Shown here: piece by piece, positions 31,459-42,714 of the stretch
How positions within the stretch are numbered: position 1 is the first letter of the stretch
Layout: each line of letters starts with the position of its first letter
Assembly (NCBI GenBank): GCA_965218585.1
Contig: CBDCLE010000003.1
Location: forward strand, 96,001 to 160,000
DNA: 64,000 nt
DNA from: Terriglobia bacterium
Lineage (GTDB): Bacteria; Acidobacteriota; Terriglobia; 20CM-2-55-15
Reading direction: 5' to 3'
The notes under the pieces: model-generated
The model's database searches: none
Told to the model about the DNA's origin: nothing
What the model saw: only the letters and a program-made list of their open reading frames with translations
Made by a program: the position numbers and the translations under genes

Positions 31459-31622
31459 GGCGGACTAGTCTCCCATCATTTAACTTATCGGCCGGAGACA
31501 CATCATCCTTAATACGCTATAAGGAAGGACGCCCCTTTGTCGGCTGTTGCCAGGAGGAAAATCTCCCGACAACAACCCATTCAACGTAGCTGCGTTGAAT
31601 TCAAAGACAAAGGAGCACGTAA

Positions 31623-32684
31623 ATGAAACAGGCCAAGTATATCGGCATGGATGTGCACCAGGCAACGACGGTGGTGATGGTCTTAAACGCAGACGGCAAA
31701 CTGGTCTGGGAAAAGATCGTAGAGACCCAGGCCGGGCCAATCATTGATTTGCTGGAGAGTCTGAGTGGTGAGCTGCACGTGACGTTTGAAGAAACCACGC
31801 AGGCCGAATGGCTCTACAACGTGGTCCGGGGATATGTGAGCGAAGTGATCGTGTGTGATCCCAGACGGAACAAACTGCTCAGTGACGGGTCCAAGACCGA
31901 CCGGGTGGATGCCCTGAAACTGGCCGAGCTGCTCCGGGCCGGATGGCTGCGGTCGGTCTACCACGGGCACGATGCGACGCGGACGTTGAAAGAACTGGTC
32001 CGCGGATATGAGACCTTGACCCTGGATACGCAGCGGACGATGGTTCGGATCAAGGCAATGTATCGAGGACGTGGGATCCGGACGCCGGGCCACGGCGTCT
32101 ACCTCCCATCGCAGCGGGAACACTGGATCGAACAGCTCGCCAATACCGGTGCACGGCGGCGTACCGGATGGTTGTATGAGGAGCTGGATCATCTGAGAGG
32201 GTTAAGAAAAAAAGCGAAGCTGGCGATGTTAACCGAGAGCTGCAAGCATCGTGCGGTGGGGATATTGCAGACGATTCCCCAGTTGGGACCGATACGTTGC
32301 GCCTTGATTGTAGCGACGGGGGACACCCCGCATCGATTTCGAACCAAACGCCAGCTCTGGAACTACAGCGGTCTGGCCGTGGCAATGCACATGAGTGCGG
32401 AGTATGAGCAGGAAGGGAGTCGTGTGGTACGTCGTCGAAAGCCGATCGCCACGCGGGGACTGAACCGCAACGGCAACCGACGTTTGAAAGATGTGTTCAT
32501 CGGGGCGGCGACCGGAGGCATGGGGGCCGAACCTTGGAAAAGCTACCTGGAGGGGCTCCAGAAAGACGGCAAGCGTAAGGAGATGGCTCGGCTGACACTG
32601 GCGAGGAAGATTGCAGCGACCGCACTGAAGATGTGGAAGAAAGGAGACACGTTTAACGCAAAGAAACTGAACTTGGCGACATAG
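31623..32684 (+). CDS. IS110-family transposase/recombinase
   Basis: IGMDVH, FEE, KTDRVDA (DEDD); IPQLGP, RF....LWNYSGL..HMS and GNRRLK motifs; SD AAGGAG. Confidence 0.93.
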   Translation: MKQAKYIGMDVHQATTVVMVLNADGKLVWEKIVETQAGPIIDLLESLSGELHVTFEETTQAEWLYNVVRGYVSEVIVCDPRRNKLLSDGSKTDRVDALKLAELLRAGWLRSVYHGHDATRTLKELVRGYETLTLDTQRTMVRIKAMYRGRGIRTPGHGVYLPSQREHWIEQLANTGARRRTGWLYEELDHLRGLRKKAKLAMLTESCKHRAVGILQTIPQLGPIRCALIVATGDTPHRFRTKRQLWNYSGLAVAMHMSAEYEQEGSRVVRRRKPIATRGLNRNGNRRLKDVFIGAATGGMGAEPWKSYLEGLQKDGKRKEMARLTLARKIAATALKMWKKGDTFNAKKLNLAT

Positions 32685-33065
32685 CCGTTTCCAGACTTCT
32701 GCCGACAGCGCGAGGCATTCGACCGCTCGTCGTCGGTGAGGCGTCGGAACGGTAGGGTCGAGGGTGAGGATCCGATACGCGGTTGGCACACAGCGCTTGC
32801 TGAAGGCCCATGTAATACTCTATCCCCCCTCGCACGACCTGGAAAAGCGATAGCCCTCGAGGCTCAGATAGAACCGTGGTCGGCAATCACGACCCCTTTG
32901 CGCTTTTCAGTTTCTCGAAACCACACCACGTTGTGATGAGTGATCGACTTCTCTGCGATGCCGGATCAACAGTTCGTCTCAACGGAGACAGGGGCTGGCT
33001 GCCACGACAGTGTTGGGTCCGGTGGTCCGCTCGGCGGGGACGTGTTTCTCTTGACAGCCCCTTCC
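32685..33065 (+). ncRNA. Candidate bridge/seek RNA region of the IS110
   Basis: ~380-nt non-coding arm after the transposase, with hairpins (e.g. GTCTC-AACG-GAGAC) and ATAGAACCG (32868-32876) identical to the right junction (33066-33074). Confidence 0.4.
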
Positions 33066-34877
33066 ATAGAACCGCGTATCTCCCTGTGCGTATTCGGCTT
33101 CGATGAGGCCATCCCTCCTCGCGCCGGTAGGGGCGAGGAAGACAAAGTCATCGATGTCGTAGTAGAAGAGATTGATCTCTCCCTGAAGGCGGTTCCTCCG
33201 GTGCCGCAGCGCGAAGTCAAAGCCGTGGCTTCGCTCCCTGCCCAGCGTCGGGTTTCCAATCTCGAAAGTCAGGTTCCCAACATGAGGACCGAAATTGTAA
33301 AGTTCTTCCATTGCCGGGGCCCGGAACGAGTCGGTGTAGTTGGCGACAAACGCCCCGCCGTCCCATAGGTCGAACCGCGCGCCTATACCGGCAGAGAAGC
33401 CCGTAAAGTCGATGTCCCGTGCCGCGGTGTTGCCGACCGGCTCGAAGTTGTTGTGTTCCAGGCGTCCCCCCAACTGCAGGCGGACCCGATCAAAACTCAG
33501 TTCTTCAAGCCCGAACACGGCGAACGCTTCTTGATCGACCGGAGGGGACAGAGCCTCTTCGCCCCTTGTTTCGAAGTCACGGGTCAGTCCCCAGAAACCG
33601 AAGCTGCCCGAGAGGTGATCGCCGCTTCCCTGAGTGAACACACCTCTGTAGACGAACTGTTGATTCTCAAACGTTGTGCCGATCTCCTGCACGCCGTCAT
33701 CGAAGATCTCCAGTTCGTCGTGATTCCAGTCCGAATAATTGAGCGAGAGTTCGAAAGAGTCGACGATCGACCCAAGGTTTCTCAGCCCCGTAGTCAGCCG
33801 GATTCCGTGCTGCCGGAACGCAACTTTCACAGCGTCCACAGCTTTCCCGGTTTCTCCTCCGCCTTCGAAAGTGTGCGCGAACGGAATGCCGTAGCGGCCG
33901 TCGTTACCCTGGTACCCAACGCTGGCAAATGCCTTTTCTCCGAACCAGCCGAGACCGACCGATCCATTGCTGATTCGGCTCATCGAGTTGTGGATCACGC
34001 CGATCGGGGTTTCGTAATCGTCCGTACGCTGCCCTCCGCCTCCCAACCACAGAAGCCATCCGCCAGCCCCGTACTCGGTCGTGAAACTGCCACCCGCCTG
34101 CTCGTTCGCCGAGCCCGCCGATGACGAGATCTGCCCGCGCAGGCCTTCGTAGGGTTGTTCCAGGAAGCTCTCGTGGGTGCTGATCGCATTGACGACGCCA
34201 CCGATGGTGTTGCTTCCGTACAGGAGCGTAGCCGGTCCCTTGACGACTTCAATGCGTTCGACGCTCCCCCCATCGATGGGTTCTCCGTGGTCGCCTGACT
34301 GCGACGCCAGCGACCCGATGCGCATTCCGTCCTGCATCACCAGTACGCGATCGCCATCGAACCCTCGAACCACCGGCCGGGAGTTGCCCGCTCCGAAGCT
34401 GCGCTTTCGGACGCCCAGTTCTCCATCGAGCATTTCTCCAAGAGATGTCGCCATCACCTCGGACAGATCGAACGAGTCCAAAGTTGTCACCGACGGGATT
34501 GCCTGGAACGTTGTTTCCTGGCGGCCCTGTGCCGTGACCGTGATTTCCTGACGCAGAGGAGAGATTCGCAGCCGGATGTCGAGTGTCGCCCTCGCGCCTC
34601 CGACCACTTCGACAAACTGCGTTTCCGAGTCGAGGGCCGACTGGAAGGCGAGGACCTCGTACACGCCCGCCGGTACGTCTTCAAATCGGTATTGACCGGT
34701 TTCGTCCGTTTCAGTCGTTACGCCCAGTTCCACCAGTAGCACAGTGGCCCGGTGGACAACTTCATCGGCCGAAAGCCTGACCCTTCCTTCAATGGATCCG
34801 GATTCTTGTGCCCAGCCCGGCCCGGGCACAGTTACCAACACGAAAAGGGCCACTAATGGAAAGTAAAAACGCTTCAC
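33064..34877 (-). pseudogene. TonB-dependent receptor (ZnuD-like metal uptake) with N-terminal carboxypeptidase-regulatory-like domain, 3'-truncated at the IS110
   Basis: SD GGAGG plus GTG 34877; signal peptide; EITVTA TonB box; SRPVVRGFDGDRV, DHG and IEVVKGPATLLYG plug motifs. The barrel stops at QGDTRFYG and reads into the IS; no terminal Phe strand. Confidence 0.85.
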
Positions 34878-34881
34878 CGGT

Positions 34882-34950
34882 TCCTCCGCAGACATTGACG
34901 CTATCTGCGACCGAACGAATCAGATTTTTTCTTTGAAACAGTCGGAGGAG
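34882..34950 (-). promoter_or_regulatory. Anti-SD/SD pairing between the uORF stop and the receptor RBS
   Basis: mRNA UCCUCCG (34949-34943) complements CGGAGGA (34888-34882); internal hairpin CGCAGAUA/UGUCUGCG (34909-34887) overlaps the SD edge. Confidence 0.55.
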
Positions 34951-35292
34951 TCAGGCCCTTGGCGGGCCCCGGCCTAAGACGTTGGAGGCGTAACTGGTGA
35001 TCAGTGTGTCGGAAAAGGAGGCCTTGGTTGCACATGCCTGGCTATTGGCAGAACTGGAACTCAAAAGCCTGAACTGTGCGAAGGCGCTCGAATGCGGGCA
35101 TGCATGGGAAGCGTGTCCATCAACGCGGTTGTAGGATGCGTGGACGACTTCTCCCGTGCCGCTGTGCTGATGCGATGCGGAAAAGTCCTCCTCGAGGGGA
35201 TGGAACACTTCCAGCGCCCACTGGAAACTGAATCCAAGAAGGAGAGGCAATAGCAGAAGAGCTATTATTTTCTTATGGTCACGCCTCAGCAT
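34951..35292 (-). CDS. His-rich DUF2946/CruR-like leader protein with C-terminal RGPP motif (113 aa)
   Basis: Basic N-terminus plus hydrophobic segment, 7 His in residues 31-67 including HxxHxCPH, ends LGRGPPRA*; immediately upstream of the TonB receptor. Confidence 0.7.
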   Translation of the reverse strand: MLRRDHKKIIALLLLPLLLGFSFQWALEVFHPLEEDFSASHQHSGTGEVVHASYNRVDGHASHACPHSSAFAQFRLLSSSSANSQACATKASFSDTLITSYASNVLGRGPPRA

Positions 35293-35396
35293 TGTTATTA
35301 GAAAGTATACGGAAATCCCGTATTGAACAGTATGTTTTGTTACAGAGTGGTGTCGGTCTGCGGAGGGCAATGCTCGGGGTAAGAATCGGCTGAAAG

Positions 35397-35447: not shown

Positions 35448-35756
35448 TTAGTACCGGCCGTATCCGCCACGGCCGCCGCCACCGCCGCGGCCACCGCCAC
35501 CGCCTCTGTCTACCTGAGGCCGAGCCTCGTTGACAGTCAGGGGGCGTCCTTCAAGATCTTTTCCGTTAAATTCGTTGATCGCCTTTTCGGCCTCTTCGTC
35601 ACCCATTTCAATGAAGCCGAAGCCTCGTGACCGTCCTGTGTCGCGGTCGGTGATGATTCGGACTGATTCTACGGCTCCAACTTGACCGAACATGTCGGAG
35701 AGGTCGTCTTCCGTCGTCTGGAAGGGCAGGTTTCCAACGTACAGTTTCTTTGTCAT
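35448..35756 (-). CDS. RRM RNA-binding protein with Gly-rich tail
   Basis: RNP2 LYVGNL, RNP1 RGFGFIEM, GGGRGG tail; SD AAGGA. Confidence 0.95.
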   Translation of the reverse strand: MTKKLYVGNLPFQTTEDDLSDMFGQVGAVESVRIITDRDTGRSRGFGFIEMGDEEAEKAINEFNGKDLEGRPLTVNEARPQVDRGGGGGRGGGGGRGGYGRY

Positions 35757-36170: not shown

Positions 36171-37636
36171 TACTACTATGTTACAAACGGTCTATTTTAT
36201 GTTAGCATCCGGTCATGAGCGCCAAATCGAAGGCGCCAGGCACTCAGGAAAAACGTTTTGCGGCCTATTTGGAACGCCTGGCGTCGGCCGCAGGACACGC
36301 CGATCGTCATGAACCGTTGAAGTCGTACTGCACCGGGTTGTTGCTGCCGATCAAACGTAAGAGTGTGGAGCCGATGGCTGCACGATTGGCTCCGGATAAT
36401 GTACGCCGAATGCACCAGTCGCTACATCATCTGGTCGCGGATGCGCCCTGGGACGATGCGGCTCTGTTGGCAGAAGTTCGACAGTACGCGCTGGGGGCGA
36501 TGGAAGCCAACGGTCCGATTGAAGCCTGGATTGTCGACGACACCGGATTCGTGAAAAAGGGGACCCACTCGGTGGGTGTGGCCCGGCAATACTGTGGACA
36601 GGTCGGCAAACCAGAACTGCCGGGTGGCGGTGAGCCTGTCGGTGGCGACAGCGAAATCCAGCTTGCCGGTGGCATGGCGACTCTACCTCCCCGAGACCTG
36701 GGCGAAGGATCCGGAACGTCGAAGCAAAGCCGCTATTCCCGAAGACGTTCGATTTCAAACTAAACCTCAAATTGCTTTGGAACAAATCCGGCAGGCCGTC
36801 GATGACGGCATTGCTCCGACACCGGTTCTGGGCGATACGGCCTACGGCAACAACTACAAGTTCCGGCACGGCATCACCGAACTCGGACTTAGCTACGTCC
36901 TAGGGGTGCAAGGCACCACGACCGTGTGGAAACCGGGCCAGGGTCCCTTGCCGCCGAAATCCTTGACCGGCCGCGGACGGACACCGACCCGCATGCAGCG
37001 CAACAAGAAACATCAACCGGTTTCGGTCAAGCAACTGGCCCTCTCGTTGTCTCCCCAGCGTTGGAAGAACGTCTCCTGGCGCGAAGGCACCTCCGAGACC
37101 CTGCGTTCCCGTTTCGCCGCAGTTCGCATTCGTCCCGCTCATCTGGATCACGAGCGCCACTCGCCGCATCCGAAAGAGTGGTTGTTGGTCGAGTGGCCCA
37201 AGACCGCATCCGAACCGATCCGGTACTGGCTCTCCACTCTTGGGGCCCATACCTCGCTTTCCGATCTGGCCGGTCAGGCCAAACAGCGCTGGATCATCGA
37301 ACGCGACTATCAGGAACTCAAGCAGGAACTCGGTCTGGGACACTACGAAGGTCGCGGCTGGCGTGGATTTCACCATCATGGCACCTTATGTATTGCCTCT
37401 TATGGGTTCCTGGTCGCCGAGCGGAGCCGTTTTTCCCCCTCTGCATTTGTCGAGCATGTTGGACTATCCGTCCCCAAACTCCCCAAACACTTCAAACCCC
37501 GCGGAACCCCGGATCCGGCCCGAACGACATAACCCCTGCTCGATTGCCACGCTTCGCATTCGCATCGCCCGCTTCCTGATTCAGCAGCTTCCTCGTTGTC
37601 CGTTCTGTGGACCGCTTCGTTTGTAACACAGTAGTA
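36171..37636 (+). mobile_element. IS701-family insertion sequence
   Basis: 19-bp IRs TACTACT(A/G)TGTTACAAACG; 4-bp GTAG duplication at 36167-36170 and 37637-37640. Confidence 0.9.
36215..37532 (+). pseudogene. IS701 DDE transposase, frameshifted at ~36611
   Basis: RKSVEPMA, IVDDTGF.KKG.HSVGVARQYCG then a frame change to NCRVAVSLS; later GDTAYG and RW.IE..YQELKQELGL. Confidence 0.85.
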
Positions 37637-37836: not shown

Positions 37837-39150
37837 ATGAGAAGTAAAGCGGTACAGAGAATTGTTGGAGCGATCGTTCTTGGTCTCGTGTCGAGTGTGA
37901 TGGCGATGGCATCTCCGGCACCAGCTGCCCAAAGGTCTGCGGCAGAGATCGAGGCCCGGATCGAGGAACTGAGTCGCCAGGTACAGGTATTGGCGGCCGA
38001 GATGGAGCGGCTTCGCAGCGGCGAATCTGATGTCGAAATCGAAGTTTCAGACGACGAGGCGAGGCAACTCGGCCTCGGGAGTGCTGCGGCTTCGGTTTAC
38101 CGGCAAGACCAGGGCGTTTCCATTGCCGGTTACGGCGAGATGCTCTATGAGAACTTCGCCAACAAGAATGAAAGCGGTGCCAGTGTAAATAAAGGGACCC
38201 AACGGGATTTTCTGAGGGCCGTCACTTATTTCGGTTACCGCTTTAACGACAAGTTTCTATTCAACTCGGAAATCGAAGTTGAGCATGCGAATGAAATCGG
38301 CGTCGAATTTGCTTATGTCGACTACCTGGCACATCCCGCACTCACGTTGCGCGGGGGTTTATTGCTGATTCCTATGGGATTGACCAACGAGTTTCATGAA
38401 CCGAACGCCTTCCTCAGTGCAAGGCGCACGGAGACCGAGAGCCGACTTTTGCCATCCACTTGGAGAGAGAACGGGTTTGGTGTCGTGGGCAGGGCTGGAA
38501 AGTTCAACTATCGGGCCTACGTCGTGAACGGCCTGGATGCAGGCGGTTTCAGCGCGAACGGTCTTCGCGGTGGCCGTCAGAAGGGATCGAAGTCGCAGTT
38601 CACAGATGCCGCCTTCGCGGGCCGGCTGGATGTGACGCCTGTTCCCGGCGTTTTCATTGGCGGGTCCTTCTATACGGGAGATTCGAACCAGGGACAGTTC
38701 TCCTCTAGCGGGGAAAGCTTTTCAGTCCGTACTCGGATGGTGGAAGTCCATGGGCAGGCGCAGTTGAGGGGATTCGATTTTCGTGGCTTGTATGCGCGTT
38801 CGGTTATAGACAATGCCGACCTGCTGAACAATGCACGGTCTCTCACAGGTACGAGCGGTGTGGGCGAGGTCCAGGAGGGCGGTTATTTGCAGTTCGGCTA
38901 CAACCTTTTTTCTCAGGTTCGGCCGGATGTCGCCCTGACGCCTTTTTACAGATTCGAATCGCTGGATACTCAGGCTCGCGTTGCCTCAGGGTCCTTGAAG
39001 GACGCGACCATGGATCGCGTGTTTCACACACTGGGTCTTTCGTTTGCCCCTATTCAGAACGTTGTCGTGAAAGCAGATTACCAGTTTGTGGCCAACGACG
39101 GTACGAGCGGAGTCGATCAGTTCAATGTCGCGCTTGGATATAGCTTCTAG
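37837..39150 (+). CDS. Outer-membrane porin-like beta-barrel with N-terminal coiled coil
   Basis: Signal peptide, coiled coil, SIAGYGE, NSEIEVEH..EFAYVDY, NEFHEP, LRGGRQKG, terminal YSF. Confidence 0.8.
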   Translation: MRSKAVQRIVGAIVLGLVSSVMAMASPAPAAQRSAAEIEARIEELSRQVQVLAAEMERLRSGESDVEIEVSDDEARQLGLGSAAASVYRQDQGVSIAGYGEMLYENFANKNESGASVNKGTQRDFLRAVTYFGYRFNDKFLFNSEIEVEHANEIGVEFAYVDYLAHPALTLRGGLLLIPMGLTNEFHEPNAFLSARRTETESRLLPSTWRENGFGVVGRAGKFNYRAYVVNGLDAGGFSANGLRGGRQKGSKSQFTDAAFAGRLDVTPVPGVFIGGSFYTGDSNQGQFSSSGESFSVRTRMVEVHGQAQLRGFDFRGLYARSVIDNADLLNNARSLTGTSGVGEVQEGGYLQFGYNLFSQVRPDVALTPFYRFESLDTQARVASGSLKDATMDRVFHTLGLSFAPIQNVVVKADYQFVANDGTSGVDQFNVALGYSF

Positions 39151-39661
39151 CCTTTCGTTGGCGCTGGTGTTTGGTTTTTCCCTCACCGGTATTGCAGAGG
39201 CGCAGACGACACGGGAGGAAGCACTTGCACAGGCTTTTCCCGGAGCCGACATCCGCGCTGAACGTGTCTTCCTGACCCAAGCCCAGCGAAGCGCGGCCGA
39301 AACAGAGTCTGGGGTAGAGGTCCCGTCTTTGCTGATTGCCCGATACGTTGCAACAGAAGGCGGAGATTCGGTGGGCAGTGCGTATGTGGATACCCATGTC
39401 GTGAGAACCAAGAATGAAAGCCTGCTGGTCAGCCTGGACACCGAGGGACAGGTGAAGCGGATAGAAGTCACAGCTTTCCTGGAGCCTCCCGATTATATGG
39501 CGCCTAGCGCCTGGCTGGCCCAATACGAAGGACAGGTCCTCACCGAGGAACTGAATTTGAACCGGACCATCCGGCCTATAGCCGGCGCGACTTTGACGGC
39601 GATCGCAACGACCGAGGCGGTTCGACGAGTTTTAGCCATCGATCGAGTTTTGAACCAATAG
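39125..39661 (+). CDS. Periplasmic FMN-binding-domain protein (ApbE substrate candidate)
   Basis: Signal peptide; F.EP..Y...WL.Q..G and IAGATLT flavinylation-type motif. Confidence 0.78.
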   Translation: MSRLDIASSLSLALVFGFSLTGIAEAQTTREEALAQAFPGADIRAERVFLTQAQRSAAETESGVEVPSLLIARYVATEGGDSVGSAYVDTHVVRTKNESLLVSLDTEGQVKRIEVTAFLEPPDYMAPSAWLAQYEGQVLTEELNLNRTIRPIAGATLTAIATTEAVRRVLAIDRVLNQ

Positions 39662-40022
39662 ATCTGAGAAAATACGATGAGACCCTGGGAGATCTGGTTG
39701 TCCCACATTTCTACGCTTCTGGTAACGGTGAGCGGAGTGGCTTATCTCTGGATGAAATACTTCATGGAGACCGCCGATCCCTTTGCCATCGTCAATCATC
39801 CGTGGCAGTCCGCGATGCTCAGCCTGCACGTTCTGGTGGCTCCCGCCCTGGTGTTCGTTGTCGGGCTCATGGTTCAGTCCCACATCCAGAAGAAGCTTCG
39901 GAGCGGTACGAATTCGAATCGCAGTTCGGGTCTTGTCTCGATGGTCACGATGCCGGTGATGATCGCTTCGGGATACATGCTGCAGGTCGTGACTGCGCCT
40001 CTATTGGCAAGTATCACGCTAG

Positions 40023-41572
40023 GAGCCTGCGCCGTAGGAAGTGAATGAGATAATAGTGTCGCAGTTAGGAGGAGAATGCGATGCCGACGACGTTTCGCCC
40101 GTACCAGCCGGAGCAGGGGTTGCTGCTGGCGCCGGATATACGGGATTGGTTGCCGGAGGGGCACTTGGCACACCATGTGAGCGATCTGGTGGACGGATTG
40201 GACTTGACGGCGTTTTACGCGCCTTACGAGGGGGACGGTCGTCGCAAGTCGCCGTATGAGCCGCGGATGATGGCGAAGGTGCTGATCTACGGGTACGCGA
40301 CGGGGGTGTTTTCGTCCCGAGGGCTGGCGCGGAAGCTGGAGGAGGACGTGGCATTTCGGGTGTTGGCGGCGGGGAATTTTCCGAGCCATCGGACGATTTG
40401 CGAGTTTCGCCGGCGTCATTTGTCGGATTTCAAGGCGCTGTTTGTGGAGGTGGTCGGTCTGGCGCGCGAGACCGGGGTTGGGAACTTCGGCAAGTTGTCG
40501 ATCGACGGGACGAAGGTTCGAGCCAATGCCAGCAAGCGCAAGGCGATGAGTTACGGTCGGATGCAGGAGGAGGAGCGGCGCCTGGAGGGCGAGATCGAAG
40601 CGTTGCTGTCGCGCGCGCGGGAGACCGATGCGGCGGAGGACGCGCGTTTCGGGGAGGCGCATCGCGGCGATGAGTTACCCGAGGAGTTGCGCCGCCGGGA
40701 GGATCGGCTGGCGGCGATCCGGGCGGCCAGGGCGCGATTGGAGGCCAGGCAACGGGAGGCCGACGAGGCGCGGGGACGCGAGCCCGGTTCGAAGCGCAAC
40801 CGGAAGAGCGGGCGGCCCTACAAGCGGGAATACGGCGAGCCGGACGAGAAGGCGCAGGACAACTTCACCGATCCCGAAAGCCGGATCATGAAGACCTCAT
40901 CGGAGGGTTTTCAGCAGTGCTACAACGCGCAGGTGGCGGTGGAGGGAGAGAAGCAGTTGATCGTCGCCACCGAGGTGTCGTCGAACGCCAGCGACCAGGG
41001 TCGGCTGGTCCCGTTGGTGGACGAGGTGGAGGCCACCCATGGGGAACGGCCCGAGACGGTGCTGGCGGATGCGGGCTACTGCAACGAGGACGACCTGGAG
41101 GCGCTGGAGGCGCGCGGCGTGGACGGCTATGTGGCCTTGGGCCGGGAGGGCCGGCGCGCGGTCGCGGTAGACGCCGCCAGGCATCCGGCGAAGGCCCGCA
41201 TGGCCGAGAAGCTGTCGATGGAGGCGGGACGGGTGCAGTACGCCCAGCGCAAATGGCTGTCGGAGGCGCCCAACGGGTGGATCAAGGAGGTGCTCGGCTT
41301 CCGCCGATTCAGCCTGCGCGGCCTGAACAAGGTCCAGGGCGAGTGGAACTTGGTGTGTCTGGCATTGAACGTCAAGCGGATGCAGGGGCTTCAGGCAGCC
41401 TGATGACAGGGATACCGCCCGCAAATCAGGCCGAACGAGGGTCGATTCAAGCACCCGTGGCGCACCCATCGGCGCCTCGTCGTCCAAAACGCCCATTCCC
41501 CGGTCACCGATACCGATCAATCGCCATATCGCGAAATTCGCCGAGTCGAAAATCGTCCTACGGCGCAGGCTC
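40023..41572 (+). mobile_element. IS1182-family insertion sequence, apparently intact
   Basis: Perfect IRs GAGCCTGCGCCGTAGGA; CTAG duplication at 40019-40022 and 41573-41576. Confidence 0.93.
40081..41403 (+). CDS. IS1182 transposase
   Basis: WLPEGHLA, SIDGTKVRANAS, NFTDPESRIM, YNAQ and LADAGY motifs. Confidence 0.95.
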   Translation: MPTTFRPYQPEQGLLLAPDIRDWLPEGHLAHHVSDLVDGLDLTAFYAPYEGDGRRKSPYEPRMMAKVLIYGYATGVFSSRGLARKLEEDVAFRVLAAGNFPSHRTICEFRRRHLSDFKALFVEVVGLARETGVGNFGKLSIDGTKVRANASKRKAMSYGRMQEEERRLEGEIEALLSRARETDAAEDARFGEAHRGDELPEELRRREDRLAAIRAARARLEARQREADEARGREPGSKRNRKSGRPYKREYGEPDEKAQDNFTDPESRIMKTSSEGFQQCYNAQVAVEGEKQLIVATEVSSNASDQGRLVPLVDEVEATHGERPETVLADAGYCNEDDLEALEARGVDGYVALGREGRRAVAVDAARHPAKARMAEKLSMEAGRVQYAQRKWLSEAPNGWIKEVLGFRRFSLRGLNKVQGEWNLVCLALNVKRMQGLQAA

Positions 41573-41703
41573 CTAGGGCTTCATCTGGTGTCCTCTTCGA
41601 TCTTTGTGACTACCTACCTCGCCCATCAGGTCGTCAGCTACCGACTTGCCAGACGGTCGGAGCTTGGGGGCCAACCCGGAGTTTTTGCCTGAAAACAGGT
41701 CGC

Positions 41704-42714
41704 GTGAAGGCTCTGCTCCTGATTCCCGCCGTCTGTTTCGCGCTTGTTGCCGAGTGTTTCGCCTGGCCCGCCCCCGCGCCGGTCCAGGTGCGCCGGGACG
41801 TTTACCTGATGGGAACAAGGGCCTCGCTCGAGGCCTACGCTCCGGATCGCCAGTCGGGACTCAACCGGATTGAAAGTTTCCTCCGCATTCTAGAAAACAC
41901 CGACGAAGAGTTGAGCACCTGGAAGGCAGACAGTGTGATCAGTCGTCTCAACCGGCACCCTCTAGGTGAGAGCTTCGGGCTCAGTGCCTCATTGTGCGAT
42001 CTCTTCCCCAGACTTAAGACGTGGACTGATCGAACAGGCGGTGCCTTCGATCCTGGGGTTGGAACTCTCGTAGAAGCCTGGGGTCTTAACAGCGGAGGTC
42101 GACGGCCAACCGAGGGAGAACTTCGGAATGCGCTCGAGACTACGGGTTTCGGGAACCTTTCTCTGGACGCCGAGGCCTGTCTTGCCACCAGGGATCGAGC
42201 AGTGTTGATCGACGTGGGAGCGTTCGGGAAAGGCGATGCTCTGGACCGTGTCAGGGATTACTCAGTTGATGCCGGCTTCGATAGTTGGATGATCGATCTC
42301 GGAGGGCAGATCATGGTTCGGGGTGCGGGACCGGATAGAGGCGGATGGAGGGTTGACGTGGCACATCCCCTAAACCGGACCCAATCAGTCCTGACGATTC
42401 AGCTCAGGGAAGGCTCACTCGCAACTAGTGGTGGGTCGGAACGCGATATCGGAACAGGCGAGACACGCATCGGTCACATACTGAATCCCGAAACCGGGCA
42501 TCCCATCCGGACAAGCGCCACCGTTACGGTGTGGCACGAGCGGGCCCTGGTTGCCGATATCCTTTCGACCGCTCTCTACGTGATGGGTGTGGATAAAGGC
42601 CTTGCCTGGGCCGAGACGCACGGTATTGCGGCAATTTTTCTGATACCTGACGATTCGGGACAGGTTGAAGTTCGTGCCACTTCGTTGTTTGAAGAAACGT
42701 TTCTCGAAAACTAG
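41704..42714 (+). CDS. apbE: FAD:protein FMN transferase
   Basis: MGT, S.ISRLN, GAFDP.VG, D.GA.GKG, LATSG..ER, HILNP.TG and ADILSTA motifs. Confidence 0.92.
   Translation: MKALLLIPAVCFALVAECFAWPAPAPVQVRRDVYLMGTRASLEAYAPDRQSGLNRIESFLRILENTDEELSTWKADSVISRLNRHPLGESFGLSASLCDLFPRLKTWTDRTGGAFDPGVGTLVEAWGLNSGGRRPTEGELRNALETTGFGNLSLDAEACLATRDRAVLIDVGAFGKGDALDRVRDYSVDAGFDSWMIDLGGQIMVRGAGPDRGGWRVDVAHPLNRTQSVLTIQLREGSLATSGGSERDIGTGETRIGHILNPETGHPIRTSATVTVWHERALVADILSTALYVMGVDKGLAWAETHGIAAIFLIPDDSGQVEVRATSLFEETFLEN

Follow-up and report, generated by a model that had tools for sequence, protein, structure and literature searches.

The leader and its family

The window, i.e. the whole 64,000-nucleotide (nt) stretch of the Terriglobia bacterium contig, carries on its reverse strand a 113-residue open reading frame (ORF) and, 73 nt from its stop, the GTG start (34877) of a ZnuD-like TonB-dependent receptor gene. 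We describe this ORF as a candidate arrest leader, which would control the receptor through stalling of the ribosome that translates it (Table 1). The length of the ORF, its seven His in residues 31-67 and its R-G-P-P-R-A-stop end had been described in the initial annotation and are all present at 35292-34951 on the reverse strand. His is found at positions 6, 31, 41, 43, 51, 60, 63 and 67 and Cys at 65 and 87, with C-P-H-S instead of CxxC, and the N-terminus has a basic start and a hydrophobic stretch, as judged by hydropathy only. A structure model gives a helix for residues 4-34 with high pLDDT and is mostly unfolded beyond two helices, at low confidence (pTM 0.35). The linker from H67 to R108 has 40 residues with 11 Ser and 7 Ala; it had been noted as Ser/Ala-rich, which is correct for this copy, but in the family it is the length that is conserved and not the composition. 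The whole genome has a single occurrence of a leader-like architecture with R[GA]PP, and six control motifs gave 1, 0, 0, 0, 0 and 0 matches. One genome alone is therefore weak evidence, since a control motif also has one match, and it is conservation that carries the case.

A profile of 22 leaders searched against 1.84 billion proteins gave 57 representatives at 50% identity, of which 46 were aligned with the window protein (47 sequences), the other 11 being omitted as fragments or long forms, several of them short of the C-terminal motif. The hosts are Acidobacteriota-type genomes. At a mean column identity of 24%, F21, C65, R108, P110 and P111 are invariant and E28, H31, P32, H63 and H67 are at least 90% conserved. 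R(G/A/S)PP lies 2-8 residues from the stop in 47 of 47 leaders (29 RGPP, 16 RAPP and 2 RSPP), and CxxC is present in 2. The distance from C65 to R108 is 43 residues in 44 of the 47, whereas that from E28 to the Arg spreads from 74 to 90; it may be noted that the profile search itself favours kept spacing, for which the contrast between the two distances serves as an internal control. The check suggested earlier, whether homologous loci keep a hydrophobic N-terminus, the His motif and the arrest motif at fixed spacing, thus has a positive outcome. Copies from the same genus differ mostly at third codon positions (e.g. 30/18/57 by codon position). Also a TAnnnT hexamer is found 6-13 nt 5′ of the start in 24 of 28 family loci as against 151 of 5000 internal ATGs, and Shine-Dalgarno (SD) words are nearly absent there, so the leader mRNA is probably near-leaderless. 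A leader protein 92% identical to that of the window is on record as P0004, and contigs of one sequencing run (X2) cover the leader and receptor start (34410-35323) of a second, diverged strain or species.

Genome searches starting from the leader gave matches in 13 of 401 genomes of the phylum and 14 of 35 of the order, at 29 distinct places, of which one (L057, E = 0.005) was dropped as spurious. The remaining 28 comprise 25 before a ZnuD-like receptor, 2 before a porin-like gene with ZnuA and an ABC-3 permease, and 1 before a histidine kinase. For the ABC genes of the porin/ZnuA operons the best NCBIfam matches are AztC and AztB (zinc), below cut-off, with manganese families next; the ZnuA-family binding protein, scanned from one of the two genomes with that operon, has MntC as its second match. 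The porin-like protein of ~460 residues between the leader and the ZnuA/ABC-3 genes (L074:11244-12617 and L075:10576-11964) is without a Pfam or NCBIfam match, and the ABC-3 permease of this type of operon carries a C-terminal HEAT-repeat domain. At the kinase locus (L073/L076:4242-6092) a family leader lies 167 nt before a membrane histidine kinase, with no metal importer there.

Searches starting from the receptor gave 35 distinct loci, 14 with this leader, 6 with another R(G/A/S)PP leader of CxxC/HHHH type, 12 with none, 1 with an apparent frameshifted CxxC leader and 2 that were not judgeable. Leaders of other types before the same receptor family are CxxC (L022, L032, L033, L036 and L041) or HHHH-F-P (L003 and L025), and six of these, scanned against Pfam, gave no match. 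The presence of at least two other leader types before one receptor family suggests that sensor modules have been swapped. In L072 (G001:C6, near 353849-354124) the leader is frameshifted before RGPP, and the shifted frame crosses the intergenic region to stop within the first receptor codons, being either a natural constitutive variant or an assembly indel. In L026 the N-terminus of an L022-type leader is seemingly in frame with the receptor near oriented position 1336, as if fused by a deletion.

The receptor had been called ZnuD-like, which agrees with its best solved relative. For an intact homolog this is ZnuD (E = 3e-34, the next being 2e-18), and the four high-affinity zinc ligands of ZnuD from Neisseria meningitidis (PDB 4rdr), Asp99, His100, Glu340 and His499 (PMC4557270), map with a constant offset of 14 onto the solved chain and align to D196, H197, E388 and H532. 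These make up an Asp-His (plug), Glu, His (loop 6) zinc site. Among receptors covering the site they are conserved in 46/46, 46/46, 44/44 and 41/41 cases respectively, with a leader or without. ZnuD (NF038289) is also the best NCBIfam family, with 184.7 bits for the window piece and 193-222 bits for three intact relatives, missing the cut-off of 950, while the TonB-copper family scores 64-80 bits. Close relatives of the receptor are in Terriglobia and other Acidobacteriota records. The ZnuD gene is transcriptionally controlled by Zur, and its product differs from the receptor here, which has an N-terminal carboxypeptidase-regulatory-like domain besides lying far under the family cut-off. The genome has two Fur-family genes only (G000:C5:171138-171494 and C10:90472-90804), with Fur and PerR as best models, and neither protein matched the Zur model at E 1e-15.

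Table 1. Positions of the leader, its RNA elements and the neighbouring receptor and insertion element in the window.
Feature	Position	Strand	Basis or remark
Leader ORF, 113 aa, candidate arrest peptide	34951..35292	-	Ends R-G-P-P-R-A-stop; family conservation, codon-position differences
TATACT, -10-like hexamer, 11 nt 5′ of leader ATG, no SD	35304..35309	-	Sequence; TAnnnT family enrichment
Hydrophobic segment, residues about 9-26, signal peptide or anchor	35215..35268	-	15-residue hydropathy up to 2.7
E28-x-x-H31-P32-x-x-E35, candidate metal ligands	35188..35211	-	E28, H31, P32 at least 90% in 47 sequences; E35 invariant in 22 closer ones
H60-x-x-H63-x-C65-x-H67, candidate metal ligands	35092..35115	-	C65 invariant; H63, H67 at least 90% conserved
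R108-G-P-P arrest motif; Pro110 codon (34965-34963) expected P-site codon	34960..34971	-	Register by analogy with CruR toeprint
C-over-G-rich stretch at leader end, possible Rho loading site	34945..35060	-	C 0.40, G 0.22 in best tabulated 78-nt window
UCCUCCG anti-SD, specific to window copy, +17 to +23 from first base of P-site codon	34943..34949	-	Complementarity, fold, relatives
Local hairpin, 3′ arm reaching first SD-region bases	34888..34908	-	Fold, stall model; persists under modelled stall
CGGAGGA ribosome-binding site of receptor	34882..34888	-	Sequence
5′ part (about 600 codons) of ZnuD-like TonB-dependent receptor, with D196, H197, E388, H532	33080..34877	-	Frame continues into insertion sequence, stop at 32979
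IS110-family element, about 1555 nt, transposase 31623-32684, interrupts receptor	31514..33078	+	16 copies in genome

Predicted RNA pairing at the receptor start and the split receptor gene

A complementarity of UCCUCCG with the ribosome-binding site (RBS) CGGAGGA and a second hairpin at the SD had also been claimed, and both the helix and the hairpin (34908-34902 with 34888-34894) are present in the minimum-free-energy fold of the window (z = -2.3, with 5 of 200 shuffles as good). A perfect anti-SD of at least 7 bp near the upstream stop was found in 0 of 95 control gene pairs of the genome, these pairs being rough ORF calls from one genome. An outer stem (34983-34969 with 34880-34868) joins the codons before RGPP to the receptor start codon in the window, and an outer stem between codons 6-8 positions before the stall site and the receptor start with its first codons is also seen in L001, L014, L015, L018 and L066.

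For the family, the RNA was analysed in 28 of 31 loci with leader-to-receptor gaps of 61-85 nt, after dropping L003 (other family), L024 (217-nt gap) and L073 (unrelated downstream gene). The position of the anti-SD varies, being in the Pro-Pro codons, in the last two or three codons or, in the window alone among the copies of the genus, in the bases after the stop. The UCCUCCG after the stop is absent from the three relatives of the same genus, where CCUCC/CCCC in the Pro-Pro codons takes its place, and it was therefore rejected as a conserved element. The expected conservation of anti-SD and SD accordingly holds in part, for the helix is supported by partner swaps and recoding, but not this anti-SD sequence. 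The 5′ arm of each locus with its own SD region gave -17.4 kcal/mol as against -13.6 ± 0.75 kcal/mol for swapped partners, a value reached in 0 of 7459 derangements (10 group representatives), and upstream control arms with the SD region gave -11.3 to -13.1 kcal/mol. When the last codons are replaced by synonymous ones the pairing is weaker than that of the actual codons, at the 10% level, in 17 of 28 loci.

To model a stall, the RNA was taken away as far as +12 to +24, counted from the P-site codon. Over the 28 loci the cost of opening the RBS drops on average from 13.1 to 8.6-9.3 kcal/mol (3.8-4.5 lower), whereas in the 95 control pairs it goes from 8.5 to 7.8-8.0 kcal/mol (0.4-0.7 lower). 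When pairing across the ribosome is allowed, the model gives no opening in the window copy (17.4 to 17.6-17.7 kcal/mol), and forbidding such pairs changed little. A stalled ribosome covers the mRNA to about +13 to +16. The anti-SD of the window thus lies at or beyond the ribosome edge and the local hairpin persists, which makes the stall geometry weak here, though right in kind for the family. The earlier idea that a stalled ribosome frees the receptor RBS therefore fits the family and hardly the copy on which it was made. We consider the SD helix to be probably a real output in the family. Twenty loci, 11 of them receptor loci that lack a leader, gave 0 Rfam matches at the gathering score, and no riboswitch alternative was found.

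The receptor of the window had been thought to be truncated by an insertion sequence (IS). An IS110 element does interrupt it, near 33079, but the gene is split rather than simply truncated, its last 139 residues being at G000:C3:72206-72622 (forward strand) on the same contig, about 57 kb away. This displaced piece is 85% identical to an intact homolog and adjoins another IS110 copy in opposite orientation. The simplest reading is that IS110 inserted and that the 57 kb or so between two inverted copies then became inverted, though a misjoin of the assembly at the IS110 repeats could also account for it. One contig of the runs covers 33049-34341 without differences, barely entering the IS, and no intact receptor junction was found among the matches listed from the contigs of four sequencing runs. 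A second receptor of the ZnuD-like family was absent from the assembly, which is 95% complete, and the leader switch has no intact target in this genome. Since its target is split by IS110 and its RNA switch has drifted, the window copy is probably a poor or dead example.

As to the surroundings, the 16 IS110 copies have flanks close to TACGCG-GT-AT with the GT core at both junctions, which is the pattern expected of a target guided by a bridge RNA. The region is rich in insertions, with a DDE transposase split over two frames at 36215-37532 and a transposase-like ORF (40081-41403) that interrupts a porin/FMN-binding/ApbE gene cluster at 37837-42714. Directly 5′ of the leader lies the gene of a small RNA-recognition-motif protein with a Gly/Arg tail (35448-35756, reverse strand), which was not seen upstream in the relatives listed.

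Possible sensed metal and regulatory output

On these results the ORF is very probably a regulatory arrest leader, and we are fairly confident that it responds to metal. With zinc as the main metal the confidence is lower, at a little better than even. The reading that joins these parts, namely a cis-acting metal-responsive arrest leader, CruR-like in action and most likely for zinc, is the one we favour, as being somewhat probable. In this mechanism a leader mRNA that, from its promoter-like hexamer, would be near-leaderless is translated until the ribosome stalls with Pro110 in the P site, as experiments on other RAPP/RGPP proteins would predict. In most family members the stalled ribosome would then occupy the last codons, whose alternative is to be paired with the SD (the helix coming from comparison and the effect from modelling), and the importer would be translated when metal is scarce, the direction being that expected of an importer. 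The fixed 43-residue spacer would bring H-x-x-H-x-C-x-H to a point just beyond the exit tunnel. A divalent metal bound there, probably with E-x-x-H-P-x-x-E also, would fold or pull the chain and let the ribosome finish, upon which the SD helix would reform and shut off import, perhaps with the help of Rho. C65 is 45 residues from the P site, and 45 residues is about the length of the exit tunnel plus a few residues, so that metal may be bound at the mouth of the tunnel or within the translocon. A candidate amino-terminal copper- and nickel-binding (ATCUN) site was dropped, because it would require cleavage after Glu28, against the rules of signal peptidase.

A number of points weigh against this reading. 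On the RNA side, the window copy has no recoding signal (fraction 0.65) and under the modelled stall it opens little (17.4 to 15.3-16.4 kcal/mol). The RNAalifold consensus helix of 12 related loci has 5 bp only (CCUCU/GGAGG), mostly invariant and with one pair changed on both sides. A drop of at least 3 kcal/mol is seen in only 13-17 of the 28 loci (10-12 of the 95 controls), and related loci are not independent, so the significance of the modelled stall effect is overstated. As for the metal, the receptor scores of 185-222 bits are a long way below the 950 bits set as cut-off for the ZnuD family, and ZnuA-family proteins also bind Mn and Fe. Also, among the 35 receptor loci, 6 have a leader of CxxC/HHHH type and 12 lack any such leader, so the metal does not follow from the type of ligand. 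The argument made earlier, that His rather than CxxC speaks against copper, is unsafe alone, since R(G/A/S)PP leaders of CxxC type are found before receptors of this family as well.

This bears on the most serious alternative, in which the arrest leader is the same and the metal sensed is Mn, Fe, Ni, Co or Cu. A mixture of Glu, His and Cys is not specific for zinc, the matches of the downstream binding protein include MntC and other proteins that bind Mn/Fe, receptors of this family are also preceded by CxxC leaders, those members of the class that have been tested are copper sensors, and a passage in PMC9973294 links His-only CutF-like leaders to Ni/Co genes. However, three different downstream proteins all have zinc-uptake families as best match (ZnuD, AztC and AztB), the four ZnuD ligands are invariant in the receptors, the TonB-copper family scores far lower than ZnuD, and CxxC is present in only 2 of 47 family leaders. 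We therefore regard a metal other than zinc as unlikely, although it is the alternative with most in its favour.

A second alternative keeps leader and sensing and makes Rho-dependent termination, as in CruR, the main output, with the SD helix secondary. It suits the window copy, in which the SD stays closed in the model; a rho gene is present in the genome, and CruR uses such a route. The C-over-G bubble at the leader end exceeds that of the own receptor coding sequence in 27 of 28 loci (mean C-G of 0.24 as against 0.09-0.10, with 0.10 in the controls). But synonymous recoding explains most of this bubble (0.22 real and 0.17 recoded, with 12 of 28 loci at the 10% level), which is thus partly a matter of amino-acid make-up; also the gaps are short (61-85 nt as against 162 nt for cruR-bfrG) and the SD pairing is partner-specific. 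Rho as the main output is accordingly improbable to us, though the two outputs can coexist. The least probable alternative, to which we give very little weight, is that there is no metal-released switch, the ORF being a small exported metal chaperone (for which its hydrophobic N-terminal segment and a weak match to the LpqS model, E = 0.055, might speak) or a secretion monitor released by export alone, as RAPP/RGPP leaders were first found according to PMC12992588: a chaperone needs neither the invariant C-terminal R-x-P-P nor the fixed spacer and SD helix and is at odds with the mostly unfolded model, and a monitor needs neither the conserved His/Cys/Glu set nor the tie to metal importers.

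Relation to known arrest leaders

The nearest known system is CruR (Bp2923, DUF2946/PF11162), which heads the operon of the TonB transporter BfrG in Bordetella pertussis, needs no signal and has a fixed 45-residue gap between its motifs, five added residues being enough to spoil control (PMC9426467, in the passages concerned). Its arrest was shown by toeprint, with the third and fourth residues of the motif in the P and A sites (passage in PMC12992588). The leader described here is likewise the first gene of a metal-import operon with an export signal (here a putative one, by hydropathy), a TonB receptor downstream and a C-over-G stretch at its end, and it likewise has a metal motif at a fixed distance from a C-terminal RAPP/RGPP, with 42 residues between C65 and R108 as against the 45 of CruR. 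It differs in having ExxHP and HxxHxCxH in place of CxxC, in its targets, which are ZnuD-like and ZnuA/ZnuB-type and not copper genes, nor does it head a copper-homeostasis operon, and in its short gap with an SD-sequestering helix, Acidobacteriota-type hosts and probably near-leaderless start. At the PF11162 gathering score no match was found for the window protein, for any of 22 close relatives or in the genome, and against the 47 family leaders 3 weak matches were obtained, the best with 21.5 bits (gathering score 23.7). Pfam and NCBIfam have no family for the leader. On profile comparison with one CxxC-type leader only the RGPP end aligned (probability 8.9%), and in a protein-language-model search the clusters at 0.96-0.97 are unnamed, while a cluster named DUF2946 comes at rank 20, which is a lead only.

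CutF, which precedes the multicopper oxidase gene cutO in Rhodobacter capsulatus (PMC9973294, passage), senses in the periplasm, and its stalling is reported in a passage of bioRxiv 10.1101/2025.02.05.636593. The window leader has fewer than 150 residues, PP (110-111) within the last 15, a signal by hydropathy and a same-strand gene within less than 1000 nt, in line with the rules for CutF-like leaders. As in CutF, an exported nascent sensor would stall to open a stem-loop over the downstream SD, here at the family level and by modelling, the window copy being barely opened. CutF differs in using CxxxC and PPP and in that copper induces the stall and a detoxifying enzyme is switched on; with an importer as the downstream gene, metal should here have the opposite effect and release the stall. 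The leader family is therefore CruR-like in layout and CutF-like in RNA output, and lies outside DUF2946 by score and by CxxC.

Passages of PMC9973294 describe 29 clusters of CutF-like leaders, some with TonB neighbours, in which the His-only ones are proposed for Ni/Co. Clusters 14 and 17 resemble the present family in being His-rich with a C-terminal proline motif and a proposed non-copper metal, and are set apart, by their description only, in preceding HupE/UreJ genes (Ni/Co proposed) and having no Cys. Small RAPP/RGPP ORFs 5′ of TonB-dependent receptors are found throughout Gram-negative bacteria (Fig. 4 of PMC12992588, as far as its passages go), and the window locus fits the definition (fewer than 300 residues, C-terminal RGPP, a putative signal sequence and TonB receptor downstream); those passages make no split by sensor motif or metal, and zinc is unmentioned in that main text. 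Both CutF-like leaders with His only and RAPP/RGPP leaders 5′ of TonB receptors are thus already described (passages of PMC9973294 and PMC12992588), and what appears to be new is a sensor variant within the known arrest-leader class, with zinc as the best guess. No zinc-responsive arrest leader was found in the literature searched, of which the supplementary lists of known leaders may include members of this family.

Bacterial zinc uptake is known as transcriptionally controlled by Zur. A passage of PMC9426467 states that no riboswitch has been described for zinc or copper, and in the literature found, sensing of metal by an arrest peptide has been shown for copper only. The invariant ligand set together with the 43-residue ruler and the zinc-type targets makes nascent-chain zinc sensing, and the membrane side on which it would occur, directly testable, for which the window copy is a poor object because its receptor is split, intact relatives (e.g. 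L018, L019, L044 and L051) being better. It is possible, at somewhat less than even chances in our view, that the family as a whole is a zinc-sensing arrest switch, with His/Cys/Glu ligands, the 43-residue ruler and a near-leaderless mRNA, giving translational control of outer-membrane and ABC zinc import in Acidobacteriota and possibly replacing Zur. If this is true, the swapped sensor modules (ExxHP/HxxHxCxH, CxxC and HHHH) would form a natural series showing how nascent chains discriminate between metals.

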